IMG/VR virus record: IMGVR_UViG_3300021400_000062 | Span: 1 to 64,000 of that record | Strand: one strand, 5' to 3' | Length of the DNA: 64,000 nt | DNA from: a virus | Lineage: Duplodnaviria; Caudoviricetes | In this document: piece after piece, positions 5,664-58,593 of the stretch | How the letters are laid out: every line of letters begins with the position of its first letter | Position numbering within the stretch: position 1 is the first letter of the stretch | Notes under the pieces: model-generated | What the model was told of the DNA's origin: nothing | The model's database searches: none | Seen by the model: the letters and a program-made list of their open reading frames with translations, nothing else | Position numbers and translations under genes: made by a program

Positions 5664-6218
5664 ATGAACTACATACAGAAATTTTTCGGACACCTATATA
5701 CAATATTCAAACACAAATATTGGGTATTCTATTACTCGGTAAAATGTGGTATTCCTTGGCGTGGGTTAGTTCACGACCTATCAAAGTTCTCTCCTGTCGA
5801 GTTCTTTGAGAGTGTAAAGTATTTCACAGGTAACGGAAGTCCGATAAATGCAGCAAAGAAAGATAAAGGATACTCAAAAGCTTGGTTTCATCATAGGGGG
5901 AGAAACAAACACCATTATGAATATTGGGTGGATTGGCTCGATAGTGGTGGTATTCCAGTAAAGATACCATATAAGTATGTTATAGAAATGGTATGTGATT
6001 ATCTTTCTGCTGGAAGAACTTATAGGAAAGGAGAGTTTTCATACAAGTCTGAATACGAGTGGTGGAAAGTAAGAAGAGATAGTGCTAAAATGCATGATGG
6101 TGTAAAGAAATTGCTTGAACATATATTCTTTTCATTAACATGTATTGATGAGTCTGTCGTGTTTGGCAGAATAAAAGATGGCTGGTATAAAAGATTGTAT
6201 GATATTTTTATGTTATAG
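5664..6218 (+). CDS. HD-superfamily phosphohydrolase (DUF5662-like)
   Basis: HK...HDLSKFSP...AWFHH.GRNKHHYEYW...EMVCD pattern. Confidence 0.75.
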   Translation: MNYIQKFFGHLYTIFKHKYWVFYYSVKCGIPWRGLVHDLSKFSPVEFFESVKYFTGNGSPINAAKKDKGYSKAWFHHRGRNKHHYEYWVDWLDSGGIPVKIPYKYVIEMVCDYLSAGRTYRKGEFSYKSEYEWWKVRRDSAKMHDGVKKLLEHIFFSLTCIDESVVFGRIKDGWYKRLYDIFML

Positions 6219-6257
6219 CTACTACTTTTAGCCAATACTATTTAGTTAACTATTTTT

Positions 6258-6300
6258 TAAGGGGTGATAGACTTTGGTCTATTACCCCTTATTTTTTTTT
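6258..6300 (+). terminator. Intrinsic terminator
   Basis: TAAGGGGTGATAGAC-TTTG-GTCTATTACCCCTTA hairpin followed by T9. Confidence 0.9.
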
Positions 6301-6332
6301 ATAACACAGGACGCTTTAAGATTTATATTTCT

Positions 6333-6340
6333 TATATTTG
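6333..6340 (+). promoter_or_regulatory. Sigma-A -7 element upstream of the virion RNAP gene
   Basis: TATATTTG between the terminator and ATG 6370. Confidence 0.55.
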
Positions 6341-6369
6341 CTTGTTAATTATAAACTTATCTTAATATT

Positions 6370-35453: not shown

Positions 35454-35972
35454 CTAATGTATTTTTATTATTGGTATAGCATCCATCTCTCCAGCCATCT
35501 GATATTGTCTTGTTTTTAGCTTAAGACTTCTTACCGGTTTGAAATCATATATTGACTTATACTTGAACTTTGCATCACTCTTATACCAATATACATAGTA
35601 ATCATATTCTGTTGGCAGCTTTACAAGTATTTTATCTTTATATGCTTGTTCATCTTCTCTCCAAAGTTTTTTGGTTCTGCCCCAATCAACTGAATATGTA
35701 TTTGTTATCTTTCCGTTCTCAAATTCAAGCTTCTTTTTTATTTTTCTTGCACCAAGCGAACCAAATCTACATGGCAATATAACCATTTTTCCTCTTGCGA
35801 GTTGCTCTGCAATAAATTCATTAAGCTCTCTTACTACAGCCCTGTAGTCATGCTTGTTTAACTTGCCACCATCCTTCCTATATGCATTATATGTATCAAT
35901 GGTTTTGAATGCAGTATTATGTAAATGCTTTGTACCTTTCTTCTTTATACCTATACTACTCTGCTGTTCCAT
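35454..35972 (-). CDS. IHF/HU-like DNA-binding protein (crAss)
   Basis: Basic; LARGKMVILPCRFGSL, VDWGRTKKLW, FKPVRSLK. Confidence 0.7.
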   Translation of the reverse strand: MEQQSSIGIKKKGTKHLHNTAFKTIDTYNAYRKDGGKLNKHDYRAVVRELNEFIAEQLARGKMVILPCRFGSLGARKIKKKLEFENGKITNTYSVDWGRTKKLWREDEQAYKDKILVKLPTEYDYYVYWYKSDAKFKYKSIYDFKPVRSLKLKTRQYQMAGEMDAIPIIKIH

Positions 35973-37074
35973 TGCTTGGATTTTGTTGATTTACATATTG
36001 TTGCTTCATATTTCTTCTTACATAAGCAACTATATCACTCAGGTCGTCGGTACTATTGTTGACCGAATCTTTTGGTCTGTAGGCAGCGCCGAGAATATCT
36101 CTCAATACAAGATTAACAAGCTGACTTTGAAGTGCTTCCTCAATAGGAAATTCTCTATCCCAAGGGTCGCATATACCATCACCTTCTGGACAAGTTTTTA
36201 TCTTAGTTTGACCATCTTTTGTATACTTATAAGTACAACCGGATTGCTCATAAGCTTTATCTGGATTTTCAAATATGGAAGTAATAAAAGCTGTTGTGTA
36301 GCTTGTTATATCACTGTTTGATTTTAGGTATAACTTGTTGTCTATACCAATTGTACCAAATACTTGATTCCTTGAATACTTGCTTAATCCAGCATATGGA
36401 AACCTCTCTTTGCCGACCATTTGAACATTTCCAAAAGTTCTCATTGTTGCATCATACATGTCTGGATTGCATTCAGATGTTTCTTGTGATGCAATTTGAT
36501 ATATAGACAAATCAAAATACTTTGGAAGCTTCGAATATATCATACTGATTATATCCTGAACATCCTCTTTGCATTTTGTTGAATAGATATCTTCTATTGT
36601 TTTTGGCAATGTATCTATATCAGATATTTGTAATGCAGTATCACCGACAAGTTTATTCAGATACTCACAGAATTCATTATCTTGTTCTTCTGTTTGTCCA
36701 ATACTATTATATGCATCAACAGATATTGTGAACTCGCCAGCACATCTAACAAGAGTTGCTTTTGTATCACTGAATGTAAGAACTTCAGATAGTTTATTTG
36801 ATGACTTGAGCATATAAGAACTATCTGGATTACATTTACTATTGCAGCAAGGATTTCCAGCAGAACCACTATTTGTTGGCTCAACCTTTGCACATATTGT
36901 TTGATAGTTACTTGATGGTATCTCCTGTGCTTTATTTAGATACTTCTGCTTAAGAAGGTATGCCCTATATATATTAAGAAGGAATGCTATGTGTCTGTAA
37001 GTTAAGGTATCATCATCACTGACCTGTTTCGCAAGGTCTGCAACCATAACTATAAGCTCTCTATATGTGCTCAT
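35956..37074 (-). CDS. Tail ring protein with Cys-rich insertions
   Basis: MSTYRELI...YRAYLLKQKY N-terminus; IFENP...FPIEEAL...PKDSVNN C-terminus. Confidence 0.65.
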   Translation of the reverse strand: MSTYRELIVMVADLAKQVSDDDTLTYRHIAFLLNIYRAYLLKQKYLNKAQEIPSSNYQTICAKVEPTNSGSAGNPCCNSKCNPDSSYMLKSSNKLSEVLTFSDTKATLVRCAGEFTISVDAYNSIGQTEEQDNEFCEYLNKLVGDTALQISDIDTLPKTIEDIYSTKCKEDVQDIISMIYSKLPKYFDLSIYQIASQETSECNPDMYDATMRTFGNVQMVGKERFPYAGLSKYSRNQVFGTIGIDNKLYLKSNSDITSYTTAFITSIFENPDKAYEQSGCTYKYTKDGQTKIKTCPEGDGICDPWDREFPIEEALQSQLVNLVLRDILGAAYRPKDSVNNSTDDLSDIVAYVRRNMKQQYVNQQNPSNGTAE

Positions 37075-37088
37075 AAGATAAAAATATA

Positions 37089-37146
37089 CTTAAAGTCCTT
37101 GATAGCAAAGATATAGAATTTATCTTTAGCCACCAAGGACTTTAAG
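37089..37146. repeat. About 25-bp-arm inverted repeat enclosing a sigma-A promoter
   Basis: CTTAAAGTCCTTGATAGCAAAGATA / TATCTTTAGCCACCAAGGACTTTAAG. Confidence 0.85.
37106..37136 (-). promoter_or_regulatory. Sigma-A promoter for the ring/muzzle operon
   Basis: Minus strand TTG-20nt-TATCTTTG. Confidence 0.75.
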
Positions 37147-37164: not shown

Positions 37165-38082
37165 TTAAGCAATCTTTGGAAGAGCATTAACAGCAGTTGC
37201 AATGGTTGTGAGTGTAGCCTTGCTTGCTTCTGGAGTTACAAAGATAGCATCACGCTCACTCTTCTGAACTTCATCATTGCCACCAACAAATGCATAATGA
37301 ACAGCAAGAACAGCATATCCAGTAGCATCGCTTGCATTTACATAGAGGTCTGGCTTGATGTTGTCTGGCCAACCAGCAAGAGCATTGGAGTTTCCTCTTT
37401 CACCCTTTGCAAAGAGCTCAAGGTCTGCAATCTTGTGGGTGTTAGGAATCGTTGTGTTGCCCTCTGCAAACTGCTTTGTTACAAGCCAATCATTATCCTC
37501 TGCGCCAGAAACGATTATTGGTGTTGTACCAACCTCAATTGTTGCAGTTGTTTCGGGGAAAGAACCAAGCTCCCAAGTAGGAGTAGCCTCAACAAGCTTG
37601 AAGCCAGCAGAGAAATCGGTGGATGCATCCTCAAGTGTAGCCTTGCTTGTTACCTTGCTGCCATCAACATAGATATCAAACAGTGGCTCTACCTCAACAC
37701 CTCTCTGGAGCCAAGCATTGATAGCAAGGGCCCTATAAAGGTCTGTATCGGTTGTACTCTTTGCTTTTGCAGCAATAATCTTTGTGGTAACATCCTCTTG
37801 ACCAAAGCCACGGAATGTGAGACCAATAATATACTCCTGACCAGCAATCACCTTTCCATTTTTAACCGTGATTGTAAGCTCCTTGAGCTTCTTTGTGTCA
37901 TCACCAGCAGCAACAACTGCCGCAGTACCAATTACATTCTTGATAACATCGGTGGTTTCAATCTTACCATCAGCATGAGTGATAGCATACTGAACGGCAC
38001 CAGAAGGAGCAATGTTACTACCAAGAGTAGCACCTGTCTCAAGAACGTAGAGCTGAATTACTTGATTTGTAGAAAAGTTCAT
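37165..38082 (-). CDS. Auxiliary capsid protein
   Basis: MNFSTNQV..LYV start; IADLELFAKGERG; QKSERD; highly-expressed-type codon usage like the MCP. Confidence 0.7.
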   Translation of the reverse strand: MNFSTNQVIQLYVLETGATLGSNIAPSGAVQYAITHADGKIETTDVIKNVIGTAAVVAAGDDTKKLKELTITVKNGKVIAGQEYIIGLTFRGFGQEDVTTKIIAAKAKSTTDTDLYRALAINAWLQRGVEVEPLFDIYVDGSKVTSKATLEDASTDFSAGFKLVEATPTWELGSFPETTATIEVGTTPIIVSGAEDNDWLVTKQFAEGNTTIPNTHKIADLELFAKGERGNSNALAGWPDNIKPDLYVNASDATGYAVLAVHYAFVGGNDEVQKSERDAIFVTPEASKATLTTIATAVNALPKIA

Positions 38083-39794: not shown

Positions 39795-39813
39795 TTTCTA
39801 TTCATTTATTGTT

Positions 39814-39843
39814 AAATAAAAGGGGTGAGGGTTACTCACCCCT
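39814..39843 (-). terminator. Intrinsic terminator after the major capsid gene
   Basis: Minus strand AGGGGTGAG-TAACC-CTCACCCCT followed by TTTATTT. Confidence 0.85.
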
Positions 39844-39851
39844 ATATAATA

Positions 39852-41390
39852 TTAGGCTGCAAGAACGGCAGGAATCATAGAGAATACTTTGGTTACATCA
39901 CGAACCACAGCACCAAATGTTCCAAGCACATGCACAGAAGCCTTATCATCAGTGTAGCTCATGTTAGGATTGCCCCACTGACCGGTGAATGGATTGCGAG
40001 GACCCCACATGTAAGAACGAGCATCAACAGGCTGACCTTCAATACCACAACGGTAAACATTAGGCTCATTGTTGTTACCCATATCATACACATCGAAGCG
40101 AGCAGCACTTGCAAGTGTGCCATCTTCCATCAGCATCTTGTTGTTAACAGGGTCATCCTTCTGGGTATCAAGAACAACATCAAGAACAATGCCCATAGGC
40201 CCAGAGTAACGAGTGAACTGATAACCAGCAGAAAGTGCTGTCTCGTGCATAGGAGAAGATGTCTTCTTAACCACGCCAAGACCATCACCATTGAACTGGA
40301 ACTCGGTCCAACCACTCATAGCATTGCGAACAGCATTGCTGAACAGTCTTGCACCAGCCTCACCTGTATGGAGAGCAAAGTGTCTTCCCTGACCAAGCTC
40401 AATCTTTGCAGAGCTGATACGGAGAAGTGCATCCTCAAGAACCTTCAGGGAGAAGTCATTGTAGTAAACAACATTACCTCTCTCAAGCTGTGCAAGAATA
40501 CCATCACCCTGCTTGATAACTTCACCGGAAACACCAAAGTTCATGTACTCACCATTGGACTTGCGGTTGGCAACAGAATAATAGTAAACATTATTCTTAT
40601 ACTCGCTCCAAGTCTGTGAAAATACATAATCCCAGTAGTGCATCCATACGAAGCCACCATTTTCTGGTGTAACCTTTACCTGCTTACCAGAGGCATCCAT
40701 CCTTGCAATGGTAGCACCAATGGCAACCTTCTTGTTATAAACATCACCAGAAGCCTCATCGTGCAAACGAATCATAGTAAACTCGTTGCGAGCCTTCATA
40801 GGTGCAGAGTGTCTTACACCACCAACCTCCTTGGAGAGCCCCCTCTCAACTGGTGCATAAGCATAGCTGAATCTCTCACCGGGCTGGAGCCTATCCCAAG
40901 GCAGACCATCGTTGGAACCGTTAATACTCTCACATTCATAGAGATATTTGGAACCATAAGCCTTTGGGTCATCCTTAATTCTTAATGGATAAATCTGATT
41001 GAGATTACCCATAATAACCTCGCCCTTGAAGAAGTAGGCCTCATCAAACAGAAGGAAGAGCACCTTTCCATTGGCACCAGCATTGCCTCCGTTGCTGGAA
41101 ACTGCTGTTGTGCCATCCTCATAGAAAGCCTTTACAAGAGGAATGTTCCTACGAGCAGAACCATAAACATCCCAAGTAATCTCGCTATCATCAGCAAACA
41201 TCTTGGTAGGGAACTTGGAAAGCTCGGAATCAATGGACTGACCAAAATTCCTTGCCATTACCTGAGTGAAGAACTCAGAAACTACATTTTGGTTCTGGCC
41301 ACCAAGCATACTGATGTGGTTTGCTTTGGTGATAATAGAACTCCAACCTGTAAAGCCTCTGGTCTGAAATTTTGAAAATCTAACTGCCAT
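39852..41390 (-). CDS. Major capsid protein (crAss-type HK97 fold)
   Basis: 512 aa; GEVIKQGDGILAQLE, LHTGEAGA..F, LSAGYQFT.Y motifs; strong codon bias; scaffold gene upstream. Confidence 0.88.
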   Translation of the reverse strand: MAVRFSKFQTRGFTGWSSIITKANHISMLGGQNQNVVSEFFTQVMARNFGQSIDSELSKFPTKMFADDSEITWDVYGSARRNIPLVKAFYEDGTTAVSSNGGNAGANGKVLFLLFDEAYFFKGEVIMGNLNQIYPLRIKDDPKAYGSKYLYECESINGSNDGLPWDRLQPGERFSYAYAPVERGLSKEVGGVRHSAPMKARNEFTMIRLHDEASGDVYNKKVAIGATIARMDASGKQVKVTPENGGFVWMHYWDYVFSQTWSEYKNNVYYYSVANRKSNGEYMNFGVSGEVIKQGDGILAQLERGNVVYYNDFSLKVLEDALLRISSAKIELGQGRHFALHTGEAGARLFSNAVRNAMSGWTEFQFNGDGLGVVKKTSSPMHETALSAGYQFTRYSGPMGIVLDVVLDTQKDDPVNNKMLMEDGTLASAARFDVYDMGNNNEPNVYRCGIEGQPVDARSYMWGPRNPFTGQWGNPNMSYTDDKASVHVLGTFGAVVRDVTKVFSMIPAVLAA

Positions 41391-41420
41391 AACGACTTGA
41401 TTAATTATTAATTATTTTAG

Positions 41421-42599
41421 TTAAAGTATTATCTGCCAAGTCTGTTCTCCTGAACCATAATTACCACCTTTCCCACCAACAAGATTAAGTGTTCCATCAG
41501 TGTTCCTTGCAGTACTGTTCAAGGTTCTCTCAAGAGCAGATATCTCCTTTTTTCTAACCTCTTTACTAACAGATTCCTTTACTTTGTCAAGCGATTTGAA
41601 TCCATCAGTAATAACATAGAAGTATGCCAAATACTTTCTGAAATCTGCCGGATTTTCATCAGCATATTTTTGCAGAGCACTTATTGGTCTGCCTTGCTTA
41701 TCCTTCCCGACAGGTCTGTTGATAGCATCAAAAATCTTTTGTCTGGTTGCCTTGTCAACCTTAATCTCTCCAAATGATTTCTCATCTTCAAGAATAGATT
41801 TCTTCAGCTTTTCAGCATCCTTCTTTCTGTCCTCAACAGCTTTCTCATACTCAGCTTTTCTCGCATTGAACTCTTCGTCATACTTGGCTTTATAAAACTT
41901 TTTGTTTGACTCAAGAGCATCTTTTGCTTCTTCAATATCAGTGCTGTTTTCAAAGATTTTTTGAACCTTTTCCTTTGCTCTGTCTTCCGAGAAACCCCTA
42001 TTAATCAAGTCTGTATAAATCAGATTCTTTCTAAGGTTTTCCCCTTCTTCAGTTTCAGCATTAATATCTTCTTCCTTAATACTGTCGAGATTTTTTAGAC
42101 TGTTTTCAAAGACCTGAATATCCGATGGTTCCATACCATAAGTAAGAGCATCGTTTATTCTCTTTTCTGTTTCTCCCAATCTGTTTGTTACAGTCTCTTC
42201 CAACTTTTCCTTGATGAAATCCTCAAAGTCGTTAGCATTGTCAATCTTTGAAAGTCTTTCATCATCTGCATCTGAAAAAAGGGGAACACCATCTACCTTA
42301 AATGCCGAGGCAATGGAAGAGTAGGTATTGGGAGAAGTACCTTCAGCTTGGCTTCCGGTGCTCCCTGTTTCTTTTTCAGACTTATCGCCACCTACGCTCT
42401 CCAGTTCAAGATTTGCAGCATCAAGAACTTCAGTAGCCTCGTTTTCAATGAACTCTTGTTTTTCTTCTTTCTTTTCTTCCTCTTTGTGCTCCGGCTCCTT
42501 GACTTCTTCTTTTGTTTTTTCTGGCTCTACAACCTTGTTGTCAAGCTCCAAATCGCTGGCATCGAGGACATTTTCCATTGATAAATTAAATTCTTCCAT
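41421..42599 (-). CDS. Putative capsid scaffolding protein
   Basis: Highly acidic N-terminus and coiled coils; immediately upstream of the MCP. Confidence 0.7.
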   Translation of the reverse strand: MEEFNLSMENVLDASDLELDNKVVEPEKTKEEVKEPEHKEEEKKEEKQEFIENEATEVLDAANLELESVGGDKSEKETGSTGSQAEGTSPNTYSSIASAFKVDGVPLFSDADDERLSKIDNANDFEDFIKEKLEETVTNRLGETEKRINDALTYGMEPSDIQVFENSLKNLDSIKEEDINAETEEGENLRKNLIYTDLINRGFSEDRAKEKVQKIFENSTDIEEAKDALESNKKFYKAKYDEEFNARKAEYEKAVEDRKKDAEKLKKSILEDEKSFGEIKVDKATRQKIFDAINRPVGKDKQGRPISALQKYADENPADFRKYLAYFYVITDGFKSLDKVKESVSKEVRKKEISALERTLNSTARNTDGTLNLVGGKGGNYGSGEQTWQIIL

Positions 42600-42624
42600 A
42601 TTGTTTCTCCATTTAATTTTGTAA

Positions 42625-42655
42625 CAAAAGTATCTAAAATAGCAAGAAAGGTCAA
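42625..42655 (-). promoter_or_regulatory. Sigma-A promoter for scaffold/MCP
   Basis: Minus strand TTG-20nt-TACTTTTG. Confidence 0.7.
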
Positions 42656-42712
42656 CAAGATTAAAATAATGTTAATCTTTGTTTAACACAATCTTAATCT
42701 TGAAGACCAAAA

Positions 42713-43153
42713 CTACTCGTTTTCAACAAGCTTGCCTCTCAATCTTAAAGCATCTCTATAACAGTGGTCACATAAGAAATACTTTGCTACTGGATATGTT
42801 TGTTTACCTATTTCACCTGCCAAGTATTGATATTCTTCTCCAATGAAATCAATATCATTAAACAGTGCTATATGTATTGCAAGGTGCCCCTTTTCATGGT
42901 CTATTGTTGATTGGAATTCTTGCGGAGAATCTGTCTTACCTATGACAAGTACAGATGTTCTGTCTTTTGGAGATGAGAATGTAAGACCCGAGTTAATTCC
43001 AGCATCATACAATCTATCTACAGTTTCTTCAGGATTTGTACAACCTATTGCTTCAAGGTCTTGCACTATCATATCATAGTATATGTCATCCACAAAATAA
43101 TATACCCTCACATACCAATTCCAATTCTTAAGCTTAAAATCCTGTATTATCAT
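42713..43153 (-). CDS. Putative zincin metallopeptidase
   Basis: STIDHEKGHL (HExxH) with downstream EEYQYL; ATGA overlap with the upstream stop. Confidence 0.6.
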   Translation of the reverse strand: MIIQDFKLKNWNWYVRVYYFVDDIYYDMIVQDLEAIGCTNPEETVDRLYDAGINSGLTFSSPKDRTSVLVIGKTDSPQEFQSTIDHEKGHLAIHIALFNDIDFIGEEYQYLAGEIGKQTYPVAKYFLCDHCYRDALRLRGKLVENE

Positions 43154-43554
43154 ACCATATCCTCCCAATCAATAGGAGTGCCGCTACCTATACAGTCTGC
43201 ATAGAATCTTGTAAATACCATACCATCATAAGCATCCGGGTCTTTTATTACATCTTTAACATACATTACAAGATGTTGTTCATCCATTATAGATGAGCCA
43301 AGAAAATCAGCTGAACACATATTGGCAACATATAGAGCATCATAGGAGAATGGTATGTTCACACCAAATCTCTGCATAATACTTTCAAGTTGCTCCTTTG
43401 TATATTTCCTTGGTTCAATCTCTCTGCCATTGGCATCTTTCTTGAACATCTTACTTACAGCCCATTCACACATTTTCTTGGAGAAGTGCCACCCATAATA
43501 ACCTATGTATTCTTCCATTCCGGAAGGAAATTTTTCTTTATAATCAAGTCTCAT
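43150..43554 (-). CDS. Hypothetical helical protein (cassette)
   Basis: YYGWHFSKKMCEWAVSKM...YVANM..ADF...D.D.YDG..F.RFYAD, recognisable from Bacteroidota phages. Confidence 0.75.
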   Translation of the reverse strand: MRLDYKEKFPSGMEEYIGYYGWHFSKKMCEWAVSKMFKKDANGREIEPRKYTKEQLESIMQRFGVNIPFSYDALYVANMCSADFLGSSIMDEQHLVMYVKDVIKDPDAYDGMVFTRFYADCIGSGTPIDWEDMV

Positions 43555-43564
43555 ACCTATATAT

Positions 43565-43591
43565 AAATAAAGGGGAGTGTTACCTCCCCTT
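43565..43591 (-). terminator. Intrinsic terminator inside the cassette
   Basis: AAGGGGAG-6nt loop-CTCCCCTT followed by a T/A tract on the minus strand. Confidence 0.7.
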
Positions 43592-43600
43592 GGTTAAACA

Positions 43601-43810
43601 TTACTCCTCACGGTAACTTCCACCCATGCGGGAGCTTCTTTCACCATAATAGCTTTTAGCTTCTTTCATTGCATCCCTGTAGCCATCTTCATAACCACAT
43701 TCATAAGCTTCATCTATATGGTCTTCTTTATATCCTCTCATGCCAGACTTATATCCACGCCTGCCAAATCTTGAGGTTTCGTCTTGTTCTCTTATTTCCC
43801 AAAGTCTCAT
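43601..43810 (-). CDS. Small charged Gly/Arg/Tyr-rich protein (cassette)
   Basis: 69 aa; AYECGYEDGYRDAM. Confidence 0.65.
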   Translation of the reverse strand: MRLWEIREQDETSRFGRRGYKSGMRGYKEDHIDEAYECGYEDGYRDAMKEAKSYYGERSSRMGGSYREE

Positions 43811-43811
43811 A

Positions 43812-44336
43812 TTACATTCCTGTTTTTGATAATCTTTCAAGCAGTAAGGCATTGGTCTTCATTAGTTCAGAAACATTCTTTGACATCTCGTCCATCTTTC
43901 CCTTTAGAGTATTTATTTCCTCTTTTTGGGTTTGCTTTTCAGCATATTCTGGATTAAGCTCAACCAATATCTTATCATATTGTTCAACCAAACCTTCGTG
44001 ATATTCTCTGCTATTGATGATGTCTATACTCTTTTGTTTTGAACTTAGTACCTCAGAATTCATGGCTTCTCTACTATCAGCAACCACTATACTCTCTCCA
44101 TTACTGAATGTATCAGCAATGTCTTGCTGTGAAGGAAGCCCGTTATAATTAGCTGTTATATCACCAATCTTAACAGATATATCTGTAACTAACTCTTGTG
44201 GTTGACCAAAAGTTGTCGGTATAGTGTATTTCGGTTTGGTTATAGGCTGAGAAATAACTTGCCCAATCTCCAAATATGGTTTGTTTGTTTTGTGCAGAAC
44301 ATATATTTGACCATTCTGCCTTACTGATTGAAACAT
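43812..44336 (-). CDS. Hypothetical protein, beta N-domain plus coiled coil (cassette)
   Basis: MFQSVRQN..IYVLHK start; LNPEYAEK..Q..EI..L coiled coil. Confidence 0.75.
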   Translation of the reverse strand: MFQSVRQNGQIYVLHKTNKPYLEIGQVISQPITKPKYTIPTTFGQPQELVTDISVKIGDITANYNGLPSQQDIADTFSNGESIVVADSREAMNSEVLSSKQKSIDIINSREYHEGLVEQYDKILVELNPEYAEKQTQKEEINTLKGKMDEMSKNVSELMKTNALLLERLSKTGM

Positions 44337-44355
44337 ATTATCTTGTGTTTATAAT

Positions 44356-44685
44356 TTAACCTATAAGCTTTAAGATGTTCAAAGCTCTATCGTAATATAC
44401 AAGGTATACATCTGGTCCATCAAAGTCTGCAACAGTCAGGTTTGCACCACCGGATACTGTTACATTCTGTGTATTTCCAGCCATTGAGAATCTTATTGGA
44501 AGGGTTGTTGTTGTACCTTCAGGAATAGCTTCTGAAAGATAGACAAGCAACAAACCGCTAAAAGGGTTTCTATCCCAATCTGGATTGAACTGGAAGTCTA
44601 CAGCAGTATCACTTACTGTTACTCTTGTGGACTTTATTCTTGGAATACCGTTGATATTGGCATATTGATAAGGGAATCTTGCCAT
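44356..44685 (-). CDS. Small beta-sandwich protein (cassette)
   Basis: 109-aa beta-rich ORF; IPEGTTTTLPI, VYLVYYDR. Confidence 0.75.
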   Translation of the reverse strand: MARFPYQYANINGIPRIKSTRVTVSDTAVDFQFNPDWDRNPFSGLLLVYLSEAIPEGTTTTLPIRFSMAGNTQNVTVSGGANLTVADFDGPDVYLVYYDRALNILKLIG

Positions 44686-44704
44686 AGCATAATCCTCCTA
44701 TCAA

Positions 44705-45592
44705 TTATCCCCAATAGCTCTGACCATTCCAGCCATACCCATAGCCATTAAATCCACCGTAGAATGGTGTGTTATTTACAGCTGTAAGGTTTGGCCAAAC
44801 TACAGGAACAGTATTAGGTTGTCTGTTTTCAATCTCATTAACCTTTGCTTGAATAGGTGCAAGAATGGCTGCAATCTGAGCTGTCTGGTTTGCATTGTCT
44901 ATCTGACCACGGAGAGTTGAGATAACCTCATTCTTGGTGTTGATTTCATTCTGCATATCACGCTCTTTAGCATCACAGAACTCCTTAACCATAGTAGTCT
45001 TAAGGTCTGCAATAGCATCAACAGTACGCTGGCCACTCCCACTGATTGCAGTACCAAGAGTGTTGGTCTGATTGAGTGTAGCAATCTGGTTTTCATAACC
45101 TTGAGATGTAACAAGAAGTTTATTCTCGCAGCAGCACTGACACAGCTGGGAAGCAAGACTTGCGTTACCACTCTGGATAGCATTAACAACCTGAAGTGAA
45201 GACATTCCAAGCTGACCGCCAAGAGTAGCAATGCTTGTACTTACAGTACTAAGTGCAGACTTGATAGCATCAAGACTGTAACCAGACATTGTAGAAAGCT
45301 GCCTTACATCAGCATCTGTACCATCAATTGCACGCAGTACAGTTTCTGCATTATTGTTGGCTGTAGCCTGTGCACCAAGAGCTGCTGCTGCACCAGAATT
45401 ACCACCACCAAAATTACTAAAACCTCCCCAACCATTACCAAAGAGGAGACCAAGGATAAAACCAATAGCACCACCAGCAAGACCATTTCCACCAAAGAAT
45501 CCATTGTTGCCATTGTTCATAGCAAGCCAAGCTGGAACAGAACCATAGCCATCACCATTGCCAAATACATAAGTTTTTGTATCTTCTGCCAT
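44705..45592 (-). CDS. Gly/Asn-rich TM protein with CQCCC motif and coiled coil (cassette lead gene)
   Basis: NNGNNGFFGGNG-TM-GNGWGG; SQLCQCCCENK; C-terminal aromatic/Gly tail. Confidence 0.8.
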   Translation of the reverse strand: MAEDTKTYVFGNGDGYGSVPAWLAMNNGNNGFFGGNGLAGGAIGFILGLLFGNGWGGFSNFGGGNSGAAAALGAQATANNNAETVLRAIDGTDADVRQLSTMSGYSLDAIKSALSTVSTSIATLGGQLGMSSLQVVNAIQSGNASLASQLCQCCCENKLLVTSQGYENQIATLNQTNTLGTAISGSGQRTVDAIADLKTTMVKEFCDAKERDMQNEINTKNEVISTLRGQIDNANQTAQIAAILAPIQAKVNEIENRQPNTVPVVWPNLTAVNNTPFYGGFNGYGYGWNGQSYWG

Positions 45593-45646
45593 AATAAATT
45601 TAACTTTAAATTGTTTGTTTAATTTGTTTTTGTAAGCTTACGGCAG

Positions 45647-45678
45647 CAAATATAATGTGTGTTTTTCCGGAAAGACAA
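45647..45678 (-). promoter_or_regulatory. Sigma-A promoter of the cassette
   Basis: Minus strand TTG-21nt-TATATTTG just downstream of a terminator. Confidence 0.7.
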
Positions 45679-45685
45679 CAATACT

Positions 45686-45720
45686 AAAACCCCTCACAGA
45701 TTACTCTGCAAGGGGTTTTT
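45686..45720 (-). terminator. Intrinsic terminator
   Basis: Minus strand CCCCTTGCAGA-GTAA-TCTGTGAGGGG-TTTT with G.U pairs. Confidence 0.8.
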
Positions 45721-45744
45721 ATTTAGTAATGTATTTAGGTTTTA

Positions 45745-45903
45745 TTAGAATGTATCAGCAGCTTTGTTTGCTATATAATTTATCATAAAATCTTTTATTG
45801 GAGAACCGTTTTCTTTCTGTTGTATATACGACACAATCTGCTTTAAGAGAACATTGTTTTCTCTTAAAAGTAACAACATTTCTCTTTCTTCAGCATTTGT
45901 CAT
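45745..45903 (-). CDS. 52-aa small protein (not in ORF track)
   Basis: Hand translation MTNAEEREMLLLLRENNVLLKQIVSYIQQ...AADTF*; fills the gap in the operon. Confidence 0.55.
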   Translation of the reverse strand: MTNAEEREMLLLLRENNVLLKQIVSYIQQKENGSPIKDFMINYIANKAADTF

Positions 45904-45906
45904 ATA

Positions 45907-46095
45907 TTATGATTCACCATCATCAGAATTGCTTGGTTCTTGATTGTCTTGAGTATTTTCTGGCTCTTCCTTTTTATTTGTTGATACCCACGCACCATTT
46001 AATGGAAACAACAGCTCTCCAGTAGATGGTTTCAGCCAGCCAACATTCATTACGGTTGGCTCATATTCCTGAATTAAAATAGAATTAATTTTCAT
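45907..46095 (-). CDS. 62-aa hypothetical protein
   Basis: ORF in operon; EP...VGWLKP motif and acidic tail. Confidence 0.55.
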   Translation of the reverse strand: MKINSILIQEYEPTVMNVGWLKPSTGELLFPLNGAWVSTNKKEEPENTQDNQEPSNSDDGES

Positions 46096-46384
46096 TTTTA
46101 TTTAGTTTTATATATTTATCCAAATCCTGTTTATACCACCTCAACTCTTTAAATCCAGCAACCTTCTTACCTTTTGGCAGTTTACCTTCAGCTACAAGAT
46201 TATCAAACGTTGCTCTACTTATATTAAGGTATGTATATGCTTGATATTTGCTTATACCATTTTCTCTTGCAAACTCATTCAATGCTCTTGCAACACTTAT
46301 TGCATCATCCTCTGATATATTTGTATTACCAGCATCTATATCATCTACAATTCTAATGAGCTGTTGTTTTATCAGGCCTATCAT
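46085..46384 (-). CDS. AlpA/excisionase-like HTH DNA-binding protein
   Basis: SKYQAYTYLNISRATFDNLVAEGKLPKG...LRWYKQDLD. Confidence 0.8.
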   Translation of the reverse strand: MIGLIKQQLIRIVDDIDAGNTNISEDDAISVARALNEFARENGISKYQAYTYLNISRATFDNLVAEGKLPKGKKVAGFKELRWYKQDLDKYIKLNKNEN

Positions 46385-46763
46385 TTTTTGTCTCCTTTTG
46401 ATGCAAATATAGTATTAAAAACAAGAATATAGCAATCACTATACTATTTATTATTGCAAACATTACATCGCTTATTGGTAAATTAAAGTGAAAATCTATA
46501 GCACTTATTATATTTACAACAAGAATATAGTGTAAGAACATTCTATGATATTCACAAAACCTAAAAGCATATGAACATAAATACATAAAAGCCAAAGGCA
46601 ATAATGATACTCCACCGATATATGATAGTGCTGATATATCAATACCAATCAGACATAACACTGTATTTATTGTATATACCAACGCTATTAGCATTGGTAT
46701 AATTTTAAGCGAGATTATTGTTAATTTATATAATCTCTTATTTATGTCTGATTTTTCCGCCAC
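46353..46763 (-). CDS. Four-TM membrane protein
   Basis: Four hydrophobic segments; SYAFRFCEYHRMFLHY; GTG start overlapping the upstream peptide. Confidence 0.7.
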   Translation of the reverse strand: MAEKSDINKRLYKLTIISLKIIPMLIALVYTINTVLCLIGIDISALSYIGGVSLLPLAFMYLCSYAFRFCEYHRMFLHYILVVNIISAIDFHFNLPISDVMFAIINSIVIAIFLFLILYLHQKETKNDRPDKTTAH

Positions 46764-46866
46764 AAGCTTTTAGGTTGCCACCATTACCAAGTCTTCTTTT
46801 TCCTGTTTTAAGACCAGCCCTTGGTGTTCTTGGGTCTGATTTCCTTCTTTTTGTAGCCATTTCCAT
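46738..46866 (-). CDS. 42-aa basic peptide with two xGG motifs (not in ORF track)
   Basis: MEMATKRRKSDPRTPRAGLKTGKRRLGNGGNLKACGGKIRHK*; TAATG stop/start coupling with the upstream gene. Confidence 0.6.
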   Translation of the reverse strand: MEMATKRRKSDPRTPRAGLKTGKRRLGNGGNLKACGGKIRHK

Positions 46867-47315
46867 TATTTCTTATTTTGTTTATCAACCATCATAATCT
46901 TCTTTAATGATTCAAGACTTTCCGGTGTGAGTATATTTTCTTCACCACCATCAGCTCGCTTGATAGCAGAAGCAAGCACAAAGTTTGTGAGGGTCATTAT
47001 CTGTTTTCTACTTTCAGCAACCTCATTCTTCAACTCAACAATCTCTTTCTTAAGCTCTTTCTTTTCCTCTATAAGCTGAAGTTTCTCATCAGATAGATTT
47101 CTGTTTTGAGCGATTACCAAATCATTCTGTTCTTTCATGTTGGCAATCATATCTTCGTACATCTTTTTATAGCTGTCCAAAGACTTGTCAAAGTTATCTA
47201 TCTTTGCACCCTGTACTTCTGTCTTATATTTGTTTCTTGCAAAGATATAAGATGCAAAGCTACCGGCTGTTGCAGAAGCAAAATAGCCTATAATATTCCA
47301 AAGTTCCGCGCTCAT
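46866..47315 (-). CDS. Putative holin-like protein (1 TM plus coiled coil)
   Basis: N-terminal hydrophobic helix followed by a long coiled coil. Confidence 0.5.
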   Translation of the reverse strand: MSAELWNIIGYFASATAGSFASYIFARNKYKTEVQGAKIDNFDKSLDSYKKMYEDMIANMKEQNDLVIAQNRNLSDEKLQLIEEKKELKKEIVELKNEVAESRKQIMTLTNFVLASAIKRADGGEENILTPESLESLKKIMMVDKQNKK

Positions 47316-47920
47316 TTTATTACTTCAATAAATTTTTGTTTTTCATTAATTATAAATGGATTCTTCTCTACAACTTCAACTTCCACTATTTTACTCTTCT
47401 TCTTAAACCAGTCTCTAACTTTACAGTCAGATGGGTTAAGCAATACCTTTTTGTATGAAGCAACTATATATTTTTCACTTGGAACTTTGATATTAAGACC
47501 TACCATTTGTGGATATTCAAGATGTAAACCAATTGTATACCACTTATTATTTACCGTTGTATCAACCTTTGTATTTTTAACAAAGATTGTATCTGTAAGT
47601 CTTATTGTATCTTTTATGTTTGCTATTGATTGAAGATAAGCCAAAGAAGCGAGCTGCTTATCTTTAACTTTTAAATCTCTCTTGAGCGAAACCATCTCTT
47701 TAACAAGAGAATCGTTGCTATGGTTAAGCTCTGCTATTGTATATTTGAACTGTATGGAATTACTCTTTAGTGAATCATTCTCTGCTATATAGGCAAGCTC
47801 GTTTTTCTTTGAAATCTCAAGGGATTTTCTCAATGATTTATTAATAGACATGAAGCAATATACCACTGAAAACAATACAGCGATTGCAACAAGTCCTATA
47901 ATATAATCCCTTAATTTCAT
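47312..47920 (-). CDS. Putative spanin-like membrane-anchored coiled-coil protein
   Basis: N-terminal TM, coiled coil, DTIRLTDTIFV repeats, C-terminal NPF motif. Confidence 0.5.
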   Translation of the reverse strand: MKLRDYIIGLVAIAVLFSVVYCFMSINKSLRKSLEISKKNELAYIAENDSLKSNSIQFKYTIAELNHSNDSLVKEMVSLKRDLKVKDKQLASLAYLQSIANIKDTIRLTDTIFVKNTKVDTTVNNKWYTIGLHLEYPQMVGLNIKVPSEKYIVASYKKVLLNPSDCKVRDWFKKKSKIVEVEVVEKNPFIINEKQKFIEVIK

Positions 47921-47924
47921 GTTG

Positions 47925-47955
47925 CAATTATAGATAAACTTTAAATAATCTACAA
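47925..47955 (-). promoter_or_regulatory. Possible sigma-A promoter, near-leaderless
   Basis: Minus strand TTG-20nt-TATAATTG (one mismatch to the consensus), 4 nt before ATG 47920. Confidence 0.45.
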
Positions 47956-47970
47956 GCGTTTTAATAAATA

Positions 47971-47998
47971 ATTTAGCAGTACGTTTGTGCTGCTAAAT
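47971..47998 (-). terminator. Terminator hairpin after the portal gene
   Basis: ATTTAGCAGTAC-GTTT-GTGCTGCTAAAT inverted repeat. Confidence 0.7.
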
Positions 47999-48017
47999 AA
48001 ATTTGTTTATCAAATGT

Positions 48018-50477
48018 TTATTGTGCTTTACTTTTATTGCTTATCTGTTTTCTTTTCAACTCTGCATCTGTTTTTGCTTTATCTTTATCAAAGTTTAACC
48101 TATCTCTATTAAGTTGGTTGGTAGCATCAAATTGCTTTCTCTTTTCATCAAGATTAGCTCTTTCTCCTTCAGTCATTTGACCATTATTGTTAGCATCATC
48201 TTGAATCCTTGCCTGTGCTTGAATCTCTGCAACAAGTATCTTTGTTTCATTGTTTTCAGTATTCATAGCAGCTTCATGCTCCATTTGCTGTTGCTTTGTC
48301 TGCTGTTCCATTTGAGCTATTTGTTGCTGGCTCTGGAGTTGCTGTTGCTGTGCTTCAGCTTGTCTTTGATATGTTGCCTGCTCATCCTCCTCAATAACCC
48401 TCTGCTTTTCTGCTCTTGATGTAGAATTATACAGTCTAATCAGACCACTCATTGTGAGCTTATCATTCTGTAAGCAAGCTTGGATTATTGTAGGAAGATT
48501 CTTTGTAAACTCTTGTGTATCATAAGAGTTGTCCACAACAAGCCCATAAGAATTCATTGAGAATGTATCTCCATCCACAGTAACAATCTGCTTTGCAAGG
48601 TCTGAAGAAATAACATATTGGAATTTCTTTACAGTACCCTTGAGAGCAGCTCTACACATGTCAATAAATGCCTCAATAAATCTCTTCTTGAGATTATCGT
48701 GAATCATAAATATCCACTCAGTAATATGGCTTGATTGAAGCACGCTTCTTTCAACACCACCAACAGTTTCCCTGTTTTGAATCTGTCCCTCTCTTTGGTC
48801 TGTAATACCAGCGGCCTTGCCCATTATCTGCTCTATCATCACAAGGATATTGATAAGTGCAGAAATGGATTGACTCATATCAAGGTCTATTGTTCTTGAT
48901 GAAGCGTTGTTCATAAGACCAGCAAGCTTTCCTTTTGCAGCACCAGCATTACCCTCTCTAAAACTATCTCTTACAGAAATACCGTGAGCGGTAAGAATCT
49001 TCACATAGTCTGTAATATCCCATTTCTCTGGAACAAGAGAAAGGTCAAGGTCTATAACCTTTCCCCTATTCCTTGAAAGAAGGTCTGTGAGTCTGTGCAT
49101 TGTAGCATCGTAAAGATAGCTGTATGGTTTCATCAAATCAACCATAGACACGGGCTCATCTCCACCTATATTATATATGGAACCTATTATACCAAAGTGA
49201 CACTTTGATGGATGGTCAAGGTCGTTGAATTGTATAGGGCATGGTTTTATATCTACAAATAACTTCTCCCCAATCTTAACTCCCTGCCAAGCCTGATTAA
49301 TCCAATATGGTTGCTCTTCCTCACCCATTTCCTTGTTTGCCTTATAATCTTCTGTGTGAAGACTATACTCAACTTCTCCTGTAATGGGATTGTAAGACTT
49401 AATTCTTTTAATCTTCCTTAAAGACTTCCAGTATACCTGACTAACCTTTATGTTGCCATATACATCATAGGGTAGATACTCCCCAATAGTGTCTGTTGGA
49501 ATATACAAATCATCGGCGGTGAGGTCTTGGTGATTATCCTCCCAAAGACTTATACCATCAGAATATTTTGAACCATCTGGTCTCTCACCAACCCTATATC
49601 CAACAATTGCTTCCGGTGAGCCAAGACCATCACTTCTCATGAATGAATCATAATCAGAACCAGACTTATAGTTTTCTATGTACTCAACCTCCTTGTCTGT
49701 AAGTATATCTCCATAGGTTTCTATAATCTTTCCTTTACTCCAGTAATTGTTGATAACTATCATATCAGCATCTTCTATCTTCGATGAATTGCTGTTGCGA
49801 TAAATATCAACAAGCTGTGGGTCAAGCTTCCTTGCTGCTGGTTCACCATTCTGAAGATAAACCTGATATATTTCTTCACCACATGTTTCAGCATCAATCA
49901 GACCACTGTTAAACATGAACTTAAAATCATATTCTCTCCAGTAATGATTAGACAACTGGTTGGCCACAAGTTCATTGCTATCCTGCCAAGTTGTCGTCAT
50001 ATATTTAAGCTCGGATTGAACCTTTGATTCAAACTCTTCCTGACTTTGTGAGCTTTCAGCAATAGATTGTTCAATCCTGCTGACCATTTCAGCCTGCTTT
50101 GCTTTTTCTATTTCAGATACAGCATTTGGATTGGTTACTATGACACTATAATCAAATGTTCTTCCAGCTTCTTCACCACGAAGAACATTAAGTTTGCTAT
50201 TTATTATAGGGTAATGCTGAATCTTGTCTGGTACAATATCATCACCAAGATTTGAAGCATTAAGCACAATAGCAAGGTCTGACATATGAATCTTGTTGTT
50301 CACAAGGTCATAGTTTATCTTCTTGTGAAGCATAGAATTCCTTACCTTTGTATCAGTGAAGTAGTTCTTGCTTGCACCCCACTCTACGCATTGTGCTCCC
50401 CACATCTTGGTTTTCTTTCTCCATCCAACCTTTTGGCTCGGAAAACCGCCCTGTATATTGACACTATCAAGTAGCAT
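48018..50477 (-). CDS. Portal protein
   Basis: 819 aa; HYPIINSKLNVLRGEE, GITDQREGQIQNRETVGGVERSV; Gln-rich C-terminal barrel; downstream of terminase. Confidence 0.9.
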   Translation of the reverse strand: MLLDSVNIQGGFPSQKVGWRKKTKMWGAQCVEWGASKNYFTDTKVRNSMLHKKINYDLVNNKIHMSDLAIVLNASNLGDDIVPDKIQHYPIINSKLNVLRGEEAGRTFDYSVIVTNPNAVSEIEKAKQAEMVSRIEQSIAESSQSQEEFESKVQSELKYMTTTWQDSNELVANQLSNHYWREYDFKFMFNSGLIDAETCGEEIYQVYLQNGEPAARKLDPQLVDIYRNSNSSKIEDADMIVINNYWSKGKIIETYGDILTDKEVEYIENYKSGSDYDSFMRSDGLGSPEAIVGYRVGERPDGSKYSDGISLWEDNHQDLTADDLYIPTDTIGEYLPYDVYGNIKVSQVYWKSLRKIKRIKSYNPITGEVEYSLHTEDYKANKEMGEEEQPYWINQAWQGVKIGEKLFVDIKPCPIQFNDLDHPSKCHFGIIGSIYNIGGDEPVSMVDLMKPYSYLYDATMHRLTDLLSRNRGKVIDLDLSLVPEKWDITDYVKILTAHGISVRDSFREGNAGAAKGKLAGLMNNASSRTIDLDMSQSISALINILVMIEQIMGKAAGITDQREGQIQNRETVGGVERSVLQSSHITEWIFMIHDNLKKRFIEAFIDMCRAALKGTVKKFQYVISSDLAKQIVTVDGDTFSMNSYGLVVDNSYDTQEFTKNLPTIIQACLQNDKLTMSGLIRLYNSTSRAEKQRVIEEDEQATYQRQAEAQQQQLQSQQQIAQMEQQTKQQQMEHEAAMNTENNETKILVAEIQAQARIQDDANNNGQMTEGERANLDEKRKQFDATNQLNRDRLNFDKDKAKTDAELKRKQISNKSKAQ

Positions 50478-50505: not shown

Positions 50506-50537
50506 CAAATCTAAACAAAATAAGTTATAAACTCAAA
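50506..50537 (-). promoter_or_regulatory. Sigma-A promoter for portal
   Basis: Minus strand TTTG-20nt-TAGATTTG. Confidence 0.75.
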
Positions 50538-58125: not shown

Positions 58126-58593
58126 CTACTTTATTTCTATTGTTATCTTTTCACCTCTCTTGTGTGCATCGTAAAGCTTTTTATAAAGCTGCTTGAATAC
58201 TTCTTTTGATTGTAAAAGCTTACCTTTTTGTAGGTTTCTACCCACAAGTACACACCCATATGAATCGAGTGCCGTGTTTCCGGGGTGTATAAGTATGCCA
58301 TCAAACCCCGGAACAAACTTAAGCCTTGGCATTCTTCCACCATTACAGTTTTGCTTATACCAAGATATTGATGCATACTTTGGTGATACTGTCTCCATAT
58401 CTATCTCATATACACCAGATGGTATTGCTGTTTCTCCAGTAACTTTTATTGTAGCTATTCTTGCAAGACTATCAGTTTGTTTCAAACCTCTATCTTTATC
58501 TTCAAGAGATTCATAGAATCTAACACCATTTACAAACAATCTTGATATGGTATATGTTTGCTTTTTCCAAGCTCTATCTATCAGTAGTTTCAT
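58126..58593 (-). CDS. DUF5675-family protein, putative endolysin (His/Cys, YkuD-like)
   Basis: YTISRL...LEDKDRGL...ETAIPSG.Y...GILIHPGN...SYGCVLVG. Confidence 0.75.
   Translation of the reverse strand: MKLLIDRAWKKQTYTISRLFVNGVRFYESLEDKDRGLKQTDSLARIATIKVTGETAIPSGVYEIDMETVSPKYASISWYKQNCNGGRMPRLKFVPGFDGILIHPGNTALDSYGCVLVGRNLQKGKLLQSKEVFKQLYKKLYDAHKRGEKITIEIK

Follow-up and report, generated by a model that had tools for sequence, protein, structure and literature searches.

The stretch of DNA considered here, termed the window, comprises 64,000 nucleotides (positions 1 to 64,000 of the IMG/VR virus record IMGVR_UViG_3300021400_000062) and comes from a phage genome of 96,135 bp that is complete and has direct terminal repeats. 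It holds a cassette of six genes, g1 to g6 (45592-42713, on the minus strand, as are all genes of the window discussed below), flanked on one side by an upstream terminator and a host-type promoter and on the other by the genes for scaffold and capsid. This cassette is a self-contained, portable, regulated and non-essential late operon of gut-Bacteroidota phages, the term non-essential following from its absence from ΦcrAss001, where gp30 and gp31 adjoin. Its product is probably not part of the capsid, and the role tentatively favoured for it is that of an accessory complex that would associate with the host envelope at the lysis stage, with a coat or fibre of the virion being nearly as likely.

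Gene order and distribution of the cassette

About 120 cassette loci were fetched in all. A pattern scan for g3 found 301 viral contigs, from which 80 loci were retained, and the order g1-g2-g3-(g4)-g5-g6 is kept in every one of these 80. A scan of species-representative genomes for g5 gave 39 further loci, mostly in Bacteroides, Parabacteroides, Prevotella, Paraprevotella, Alistipes and relatives, nearly all of which contain the whole cassette in the same order. The gene set is therefore far beyond chance, and the conservation of gene order that an earlier reading of the window, made from its sequence alone, had proposed as a check on the unit is found in both collections.

The carriers include members of the Intestiviridae, Steigviridae and Suoliviridae, 60-kb proviruses, a cultured 74-kb Bacteroides uniformis phage and phages of 140-170 kb. 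The full cassette is present in Wotdevirus murinus and in the cultured non-crAss phage C3_41T2LP of Bacteroides uniformis, and a provirus of 61 kb (as classed by CheckV) and phages of 66, 74 and 166 kb carry it together with no crAss-type capsid gene. The portability suggested by the sequence-only reading is thus borne out by the same gene order in three crAss families and in phages that lack a crAss-type capsid gene. Among 54 haplotypes of the provirus group, the cassette is shared far more widely than the genes that flank it. The sequence-only reading had also placed similar clusters in Bacillota phages, and this part did not hold up, as the few contigs labelled Bacillota or Clostridium are metagenome bins, at least two of which (L093, L105) carry crAss-type genes.

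The conserved core consists of g1-g3, while g4, g5 and g6 are sometimes missing. In cr116_1 (Steigviridae) the cassette has no detectable g5, and the g6-less cassettes (L012, cr4_1, cr1_1) retain the regulator gene. In the Suoliviridae cr4_1 and cr1_1, g1 was matched by tblastn and the next two open reading frames (ORFs) are sized like g2 and g3, so that both are taken as carrying the g1-g3 core, with g3 itself giving no match there at E <= 1e-3. The cassette is rare in bacterial genomes: of 401 Bacteroidales genomes sampled, 2 contained g3, the query's own being one of these two; provirus-like regions that bear it are present in isolate genomes of Paraprevotella xylaniphila, P. clara and Bacteroides gallinarum. 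Literature searches on phage C3_41T2LP found nothing, and a paper on epsilon crAss-like phages does not discuss the cassette genes.

Promoter, operator-like element and transcription

The promoter of the cassette, GTTG followed after 21 nt by TATATTTG, matches the published Bacteroidota -33/-7 consensus, and a -7-like box (nnnnTTTG) is found at the equivalent place in most of 63 distinct g1 upstream regions. TAnnTTTG boxes have also been located 5' of the portal (50506-50513), HTH (46404-46411) and scaffold (42632-42639) genes, with a further one at 37106-37113 in the gap between the ORFs 37165-38082 and 35956-37074, all on the minus strand. The cassette therefore does have the promoter of its own that had been claimed for it, which is however not unique to it, and the late region would be a string of separately promoted units and not one long operon, because such boxes precede several genes.

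The transcription start is overlapped by the perfect palindrome GTAAGCTTAC, which recurs in exact form nowhere else in the window. In crAss-type relatives the equivalent position is held by an identical palindrome or by compensated ones (TGTTAGCTAACA, GTAGCTAC, TGTGATCACA, TGTAATTACA), and in most relatives the dyad element lies 2-5 nt after the -7 box. The leader of the window has no RNA fold (-0.1 kcal/mol), which favours a protein-binding operator at GTAAGCTTAC, and the HTH_17 protein encoded upstream is a candidate regulator of the promoter. In provirus-type loci and in C3_41T2LP, the palindrome is replaced at the same position by a hairpin of 5-8 bp with a conserved GAUAUU loop, predicted at -8 to -14 kcal/mol, with changes on both sides in 6 of 7 pairs and frequent G-U pairs. 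This covariation was counted on sequences pre-selected for at least 5 pairs, which inflates the paired percentage, and therefore only the compensatory changes carry weight; judged from these, the element resembles a stem-loop at the 5' end of the mRNA.

Metatranscriptomes of sheep and cattle gut (four runs from three studies) supplied assembled RNA contigs, which do not separate lytic from carrier states and were aligned to window positions 39800-48000. Contigs of a 97-99% identical population cover the region from the capsid gene through g1 and end, across the three studies, at 45611 (with adapter sequence), 45616, 45625 and 45632, all just downstream of the predicted start, and positions 45828-48000 have essentially no contig cover in the four runs, which may partly reflect the different upstream genes of relatives and is not proof of silence. 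Two contigs, from two runs, end at the internal terminator (43584, 43603), and breaks in further contigs fall at 42601 and 42733, between g6 and the scaffold gene. In run X1 the contig depth is 41-81 for g1-g4, 12.8 for g5-g6, 20.7 for the scaffold gene and 8.8 for the capsid gene, with the same ranking in runs X2 and X3; it falls about 5-6 fold past the internal terminator in the three runs, and that of g1-g4 is about 5-9 times that of g5-g6 and of the capsid gene, contig depth being a crude measure taken from assembled contigs of relatives 90-99% identical and not from raw reads of the window phage. These data hint that the cassette has its own start, attenuation after g4 and stronger transcription than the capsid gene. 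They are consistent with the separate, terminator-reduced transcription that had been proposed from the sequence, and stop short of proving it. Spikes of RNA depth (264-670) are also seen at 42266-42539, in a Glu/Lys-rich low-complexity part of the scaffold gene, and most likely represent cross-mapping from unrelated organisms and not expression.

Proteins encoded by the cassette

The g1 protein contains the motif LCQCCCE, has uncharged ends rich in Gly and Asn, and terminates in the tail ...GQSYWG. Its family comprises more than 4,000 clusters at 90% identity in a large protein collection, none of which carries a Pfam domain. In family alignments the invariant residues include C153-C155, the QGYE that follows the CCC, and the terminal YWG, and the N-terminal part shows a TYVF motif and a charge-free stretch of about 70 residues holding a hydrophobic core of 10-14 residues. 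An AlphaFold2 model built with 56 sequences is mostly helical and of low confidence (pLDDT 52.6), as expected of an obligate oligomeric coiled coil, and predicts disordered ends, a helix at 39-51 and a single helix of about 110 residues (144-257); the helical middle carries the invariant CCC, and an aromatic/Gly tail ends in YWG. Where the sequence-only reading had placed one transmembrane (TM) helix, a hydrophobic segment does exist, but it does not amount to a confident TM helix, as only 8 of 56 family members reach the standard threshold (Kyte-Doolittle mean of 1.6 over 19 residues). Membrane anchoring, as proposed for the cassette from its sequence, is no more than borderline. A similarity of g1 to influenza HA2, returned by a profile search of the PDB at E 0.3-0.4, was rejected as compositional.

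Among the 54 provirus-group haplotypes, recombination within g1 takes place near the CCC motif, with every combination of N-half and C-half types present, and the mean identity of its N-terminal half is 64%. The middle of the cassette, comprising the C-half of g1 together with g2 and g3, is exchanged by recombination. A correlation between the g1 N-terminus and g6 (r = 0.82) was considered as a signal of a protease and its substrate and was dropped, because an upstream flanking gene correlates equally well (0.98-0.99), which ascribes the correlation to backbone lineage. In several provirus-type loci, g1 and g2 are separated by an inserted HNH-type homing endonuclease of 211 aa (in L020 at 5760-6395, on the minus strand of that locus), and a sheep-gut RNA contig of a close relative (run X1) has 745 extra bases at the g1/g2 junction (window 44667/44706).

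The g2 protein has 135 representative clusters, and it is read as probably Ig-like because its C-terminal half partly matches repeats of giant Cadherin_4/Big_9/LapA proteins. Conservation within the cassette is highest for g3, which has a mean identity of 98% in the provirus group. Its AlphaFold2 model (pLDDT 87.7) has a small N-terminal SH3-like beta-barrel and long C-terminal helices, in agreement with the beta plus coiled-coil architecture that had been read from the sequence. Comparison of the model with EF-P domain I, eIF5A and Tudor folds gave middling VIA-align Z scores of 6-7, a likeness that would concern the fold class and not the function; Foldseek returned no match in the PDB at E <= 0.001 and, in BFVD, matches to uncharacterised phage family members only. 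The small g4 peptide contains an EAYxxGYxDGY motif, and its MRLWEIRE start is kept in relatives, both being conserved in L006-L013 and in provirus versions of 104-110 aa, while the gene is optional in some lineages. Against NCBIfam, g4 gave sub-threshold matches only, to FliH and to a sulfur-globule protein.

The g5 protein belongs to Pfam DUF7841 (PF25223), which it matches with 96.2 bits (cut-off 25.2) over model positions 3-113 of 114, and a provirus homologue scores 81.9 bits. Its conserved motifs are YGWHFSKK and FTRFYADCIGSG. Literature searches on DUF7841 found nothing, and the single candidate for a fused form of g5 (310 aa) has a tail that looks like out-of-frame junk, so that no genuine fusion was found.

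In g6, the residues H86, E87, H90, H94, E106 and E107 are invariant among 10 diverse homologues, and a C-terminal CxxC is conserved, C128 invariantly and C131 nearly so. The HExxH is thus accompanied by a conserved downstream third metal ligand, as in zincins, and with its extra His, Glu-Glu pair and CxxC, g6 is very likely an active zincin as judged from the alignment. The closest family is Peptidase_M78 (PF06114), with a sub-threshold score of 13.9 bits (cut-off 22; E 0.048) that covers residues 62-102 only; the ESM Atlas gave a lead to M78 at 0.88, with M78 carried by just 19% of that cluster. The g6 homologue of phage C3_41T2LP is annotated as a PolyVal metallopeptidase, and a match to PF18818 was not returned for g6. 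More widely, the NCBIfam models gave nothing above threshold for the six cassette proteins, and g1, g2, g4, g5 and g6 had no match in PADLOC-DB 2.0 at E <= 0.1, where g3 had a lone match of coiled-coil type to GajB (E 0.007). Profile searches of the PDB with g1, g2, g5 and g6 gave chance-level matches only, and the ESM Atlas returned just the unnamed clusters of the cassette proteins themselves. In provirus-type cassettes a conserved ORF of 56-59 aa (MWKIVQAILSGK...) lies 3' of g6 (L120 8845-9024, L091 8829-8999), which has no counterpart in the window.

Lysis genes around the cassette

Homologues of ΦcrAss001 lysis genes have been located in the window and beside the cassettes of other carriers. 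At 47312-47920 the window encodes a homologue of gp27 (38% over 178 aa), annotated as a lysis regulatory protein, and at 46866-47315 a homologue of gp28 (40% over the N-terminal 48 aa), annotated as a holin. These two genes come directly after the portal gene and not after tail-fibre genes, and together with the four-TM protein they make up the lysis-type neighbours of the cassette in the window. A homologue of gp30, an L,D-carboxypeptidase/transpeptidase-like protein with 50% identity, is encoded at 58126-58593 and is likely the endolysin; the lysis genes of the window phage are dispersed, since this gene lies about 11 kb from the gp27- and gp28-like genes. In cr116_1, the cassette neighbours are gp28-like and gp30-like genes. 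In the proviruses, the order is holin, endolysin, a lipoprotein- or TM-type protein of 150-170 aa, HTH gene and cassette, whereas in cr4_1 an endolysin and a holin come directly before g1-g3, and in cr1_1 the g1-g3 core lies between a 'pholin' and a transpeptidase-fold gene.

Possible roles of the cassette

Action on the host envelope is favoured because the cassette is nearly always beside or inside a block of holin-, endolysin- or spanin-like genes, because its carriers have unrelated capsids and the same type of host envelope, and because g1 has the general build of membrane-active coiled-coil lysis helpers. In this system, the coiled coil of g1 would oligomerise and sit at or insert into the host cytoplasmic membrane, while g2 (Ig-like), g3 (barrel and coiled coil) and g4 (disordered) would bind g1 stoichiometrically. 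The internal terminator would let only a fraction of transcripts reach g5 and g6, and the g6 zincin, made at low dose together with g5, may trim one of g1-g4 or the adjacent regulator. The resulting complex would act on the envelope as infection ends and would aid lysis or particle release without being essential. Known systems that resemble it are the i-spanins, such as Rz of lambda, and XhlA of PBSX, which likewise lie beside holin and endolysin genes and share with g1 a hydrophobic segment, a long coiled coil and conserved cysteines; lambda Rz forms disulfide-linked dimers.

Several observations weigh against this envelope role, which is accordingly put forward as tentative. No known lysis family was matched by the cassette proteins in Pfam, PHROG, PADLOC and NCBIfam, and homology to i-spanins or XhlA was not detected in Pfam, PHROG and NCBIfam. 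The hydrophobic core of g1, preceded by about 38 residues, is too short for a confident TM helix and lacks the flanking charges of one, and g2-g6 have no signal peptide, TM segment or lipobox, so that the cassette, unlike an i-spanin, comes without an outer-membrane lipoprotein partner; the lipoprotein-like ORFs of the proviruses sit upstream of the HTH gene, outside the cassette. Carrier phages already have spanin candidates, either gp27-like or of lipoprotein type. The cassette RNA exceeds that of the capsid gene and is far more abundant than expected of lysis genes, which would suit a structural product better, within the limits of contig depth given above. In C3_41T2LP, the cassette adjoins recombination genes and not annotated lysis genes. 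Adjacency is moreover weak evidence in crAss genomes, because in ΦcrAss001 the same 'lysis' genes flank gp29, which is a proven head fibre.

This last example leads to a different role, in which the cassette would encode an accessory set for the virion surface, made in near-capsid amounts, with g1 as a fibre, g2 as an Ig-like decoration and g3 as an adaptor, in a part like that of gp29; such a set, little less likely than the envelope complex and tentative in turn, would be cross-linked through its cysteines after release and matured by g5 and g6. The head fibre proteins of ΦcrAss001 are the dimeric gp29 and the trimeric gp21 (PMC10172136). They resemble the cassette in being small late proteins encoded in a variable slot between the portal and the scaffold and capsid genes, a slot which in ΦcrAss001 holds gp27, gp28, gp29, gp30 and gp31, and gp29 and the cassette both adjoin gp27/gp28/gp30 'lysis' genes. 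The cassette lies on the late strand, immediately 5' of the scaffold and capsid genes in crAss relatives, its RNA depth is very high, and g2 resembles Ig-like repeats where gp29 ends in an Ig-like beta-sandwich. No homologue of gp21 or gp29 is detectable in the window genome, the gp29-bearing records of cultured crAss phages do not overlap with the cassette-bearing ones, and Bayfield et al. (2023; PMC10172136) note for other crassviruses that gp21 and gp29 may have uncharacterised proteins in their place. On the other hand, the mutual exclusion of gp29 and the cassette may reflect only few lineages, and the cassette is also found in phages with no crAss-type capsid gene, including a provirus and the 74-kb phage, where it lies beside recombination genes. 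Neither BLASTP (no alignment) nor hhalign of a 79-sequence g2 profile (probability 0.2%) related g2 to gp29, and the earlier view that none of the six proteins resembles a core crAss virion protein agrees with the lack of any detectable relation to the virion proteins of ΦcrAss001. Unlike the ΦcrAss001 fibres, the cassette has six genes, and its zincin and dedicated regulator with an operator or leader element would be unusual for structural genes.

The remaining possibilities are less probable. An unlikely one is that of moron-type cargo, whose own promoter would drive it in proviruses or a carrier state without dependence on virion production, and which would alter the host, for example by excluding other phages at the membrane. 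Like the morons bor and lom of lambda and the lambdoid stx operon, the cassette is non-essential, lies beside lysis genes, and has its own promoter and terminators, with RNA contig ends to match, between genes that are adjacent in relatives, as gp30 and gp31 are in ΦcrAss001; it also has its own regulator and operator-like dyad, follows the lysis genes in proviruses as the last unit of the late operon, a classic moron site, and exceeds the capsid gene in RNA in gut metatranscriptomes. It is, however, frequent in virulent crAss-like phages while few bacterial genomes carry it, known exclusion genes do not resemble its six tightly coupled, co-ordinated genes, the products of which look structural, and no toxin-like or exclusion-like domain and no match to known defence or exclusion proteins (PADLOC) was found in it, a result that would also be compatible with a defence system not yet described. 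Compatible with every other role, and concerning g6 only, is a quite improbable switch of the ImmA/ImmR kind, where the upstream HTH protein would act as a repressor on the start-site palindrome and the g6 protease, made by read-through, would remove it, the zincin then being regulatory and not a maturation enzyme. The ImmA/IrrE (M78) and PolyVal zincins are similar to g6 in size (about 140 aa), in HExxH with a downstream Glu and in a nearby DNA-binding gene, and the weak Peptidase_M78 similarity, the palindrome over the transcription start, the nearly constant DNA-binding neighbour and the place of g6 behind an attenuating terminator would all suit it. In contrast, the M78 score is below the Pfam cut-off, g6 has an extra invariant His (HExxHxxxH) and the C-terminal CxxC, the regulators are of HTH_17, DnaA-C-like or sigma-like and not of Xre type, and g6-less cassettes keep the regulator. 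The least probable idea, and a remote one, is that g1-g4 form a self-assembling matrix or condensate, produced late in very large amounts, cross-linked through CCC and trimmed by the zincin, which on its release at lysis would coat, clump or protect virions of any capsid type. It is drawn from composition, since g1 has uncharged, prion-like Gly/Asn/aromatic ends on a coiled coil, g4 is disordered and rich in Arg, Gly and Tyr, and g3 has a Tudor/SH3-like barrel; if true, the structure would be the phage counterpart of an occlusion or coat matrix and represent a class of phage function that is new.

The cassette likely encodes a general step of Bacteroidota phage biology, as a very widespread, conserved, portable, regulated and apparently highly expressed module of six genes that is uncharacterised and has no known counterpart; the RNA contigs suggest that it ranks with the most strongly transcribed late genes. 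No viruses of the human and animal gut are more abundant than the Crassvirales and their relatives, whose lysis, release and persistence are poorly understood. The cultured model phages cannot reveal this step because all of them lack the cassette, while C3_41T2LP, which grows on Bacteroides uniformis, and the isolate genomes with provirus-like regions make it directly testable.

Layout of the window and upstream genes

The closest named relatives of the window phage at the DNA level are in the Intestiviridae, subfamily Obtuvirinae. The 512-aa protein at 39852-41390 is a crAss-like capsid protein (Pfam Crass_capsid, 424 bits), and the portal (48018-50477), scaffold-like (41421-42599) and capsid proteins are 44-46% identical to gp20, gp31 and gp32 of ΦcrAss001. 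The genes of the cassette are tightly spaced (19 nt between g1 and g2, 19 nt between g2 and g3, 1 nt between g3 and g4), and the ATGA overlap of g5 and g6 points to translational coupling of g6 to g5. The two terminators, the promoter, the six ORFs, the coupled HEKGH peptidase, and the HTH gene and four-TM protein directly upstream are all present where the sequence-only reading had placed them (Table 1).

Table 1. Features of the cassette and of the region directly upstream, in window coordinates.
Feature	Position	Strand	Basis or remark
Four-TM membrane protein, 136 aa	46353..46763	-	ORF with four hydrophobic segments
HTH_17 excisionase/AlpA-like DNA-binding protein	46085..46384	-	Pfam HTH_17 E 5e-5; PHROG HTH and excisionase families
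Upstream intrinsic terminator	45686..45719	-	15-pair hairpin, then T-rich tail; insulates cassette from genes upstream
Bacteroidota-type promoter	45647..45679	-	GTTG 45679-45676, 21-nt spacer, -7 box TATATTTG 45654-45647
Perfect 10-bp palindrome GTAAGCTTAC	45632..45641		5 nt past -7 box; candidate operator at transcription start
g1, 295 aa	44705..45592	-	PHROG 16490 (function unassigned), 6e-32
g2, 109 aa	44356..44685	-	PHROG 31654
g3, 174 aa	43812..44336	-	PHROG 28898, 1e-48
g4, 69 aa, low-complexity R/G/Y/E-rich peptide	43601..43810	-	ORF
Internal intrinsic terminator, between g4 and g5	43570..43591	-	8-pair GC-rich hairpin and T run
g5, 134 aa, DUF7841	43150..43554	-	Pfam PF25223; PHROG 38431
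g6, 146 aa, predicted small HExxH (HEKGH) zinc metallopeptidase	42713..43153	-	ATG overlaps g5 stop (ATGA)

For a 62-aa ORF at 45907-46095, an origin as the leftover N-terminus of a deleted fibre gene was weighed and rejected, the loose resemblance of its first 36 residues to the N-terminus of a 731-aa fibre-like protein in the same position of L009 being not significant (E 0.19). A DNA-binding gene is nearly always directly 5' of g1, and its type varies among carriers, being HTH_17 in the window and many crAss relatives, DnaA-C-like in the proviruses and C3_41T2LP, and sigma-like in cr4_1. The four-TM protein was found by tblastn beside the HTH gene and the cassette in L001, L005, L006, L009, L010 and L013.

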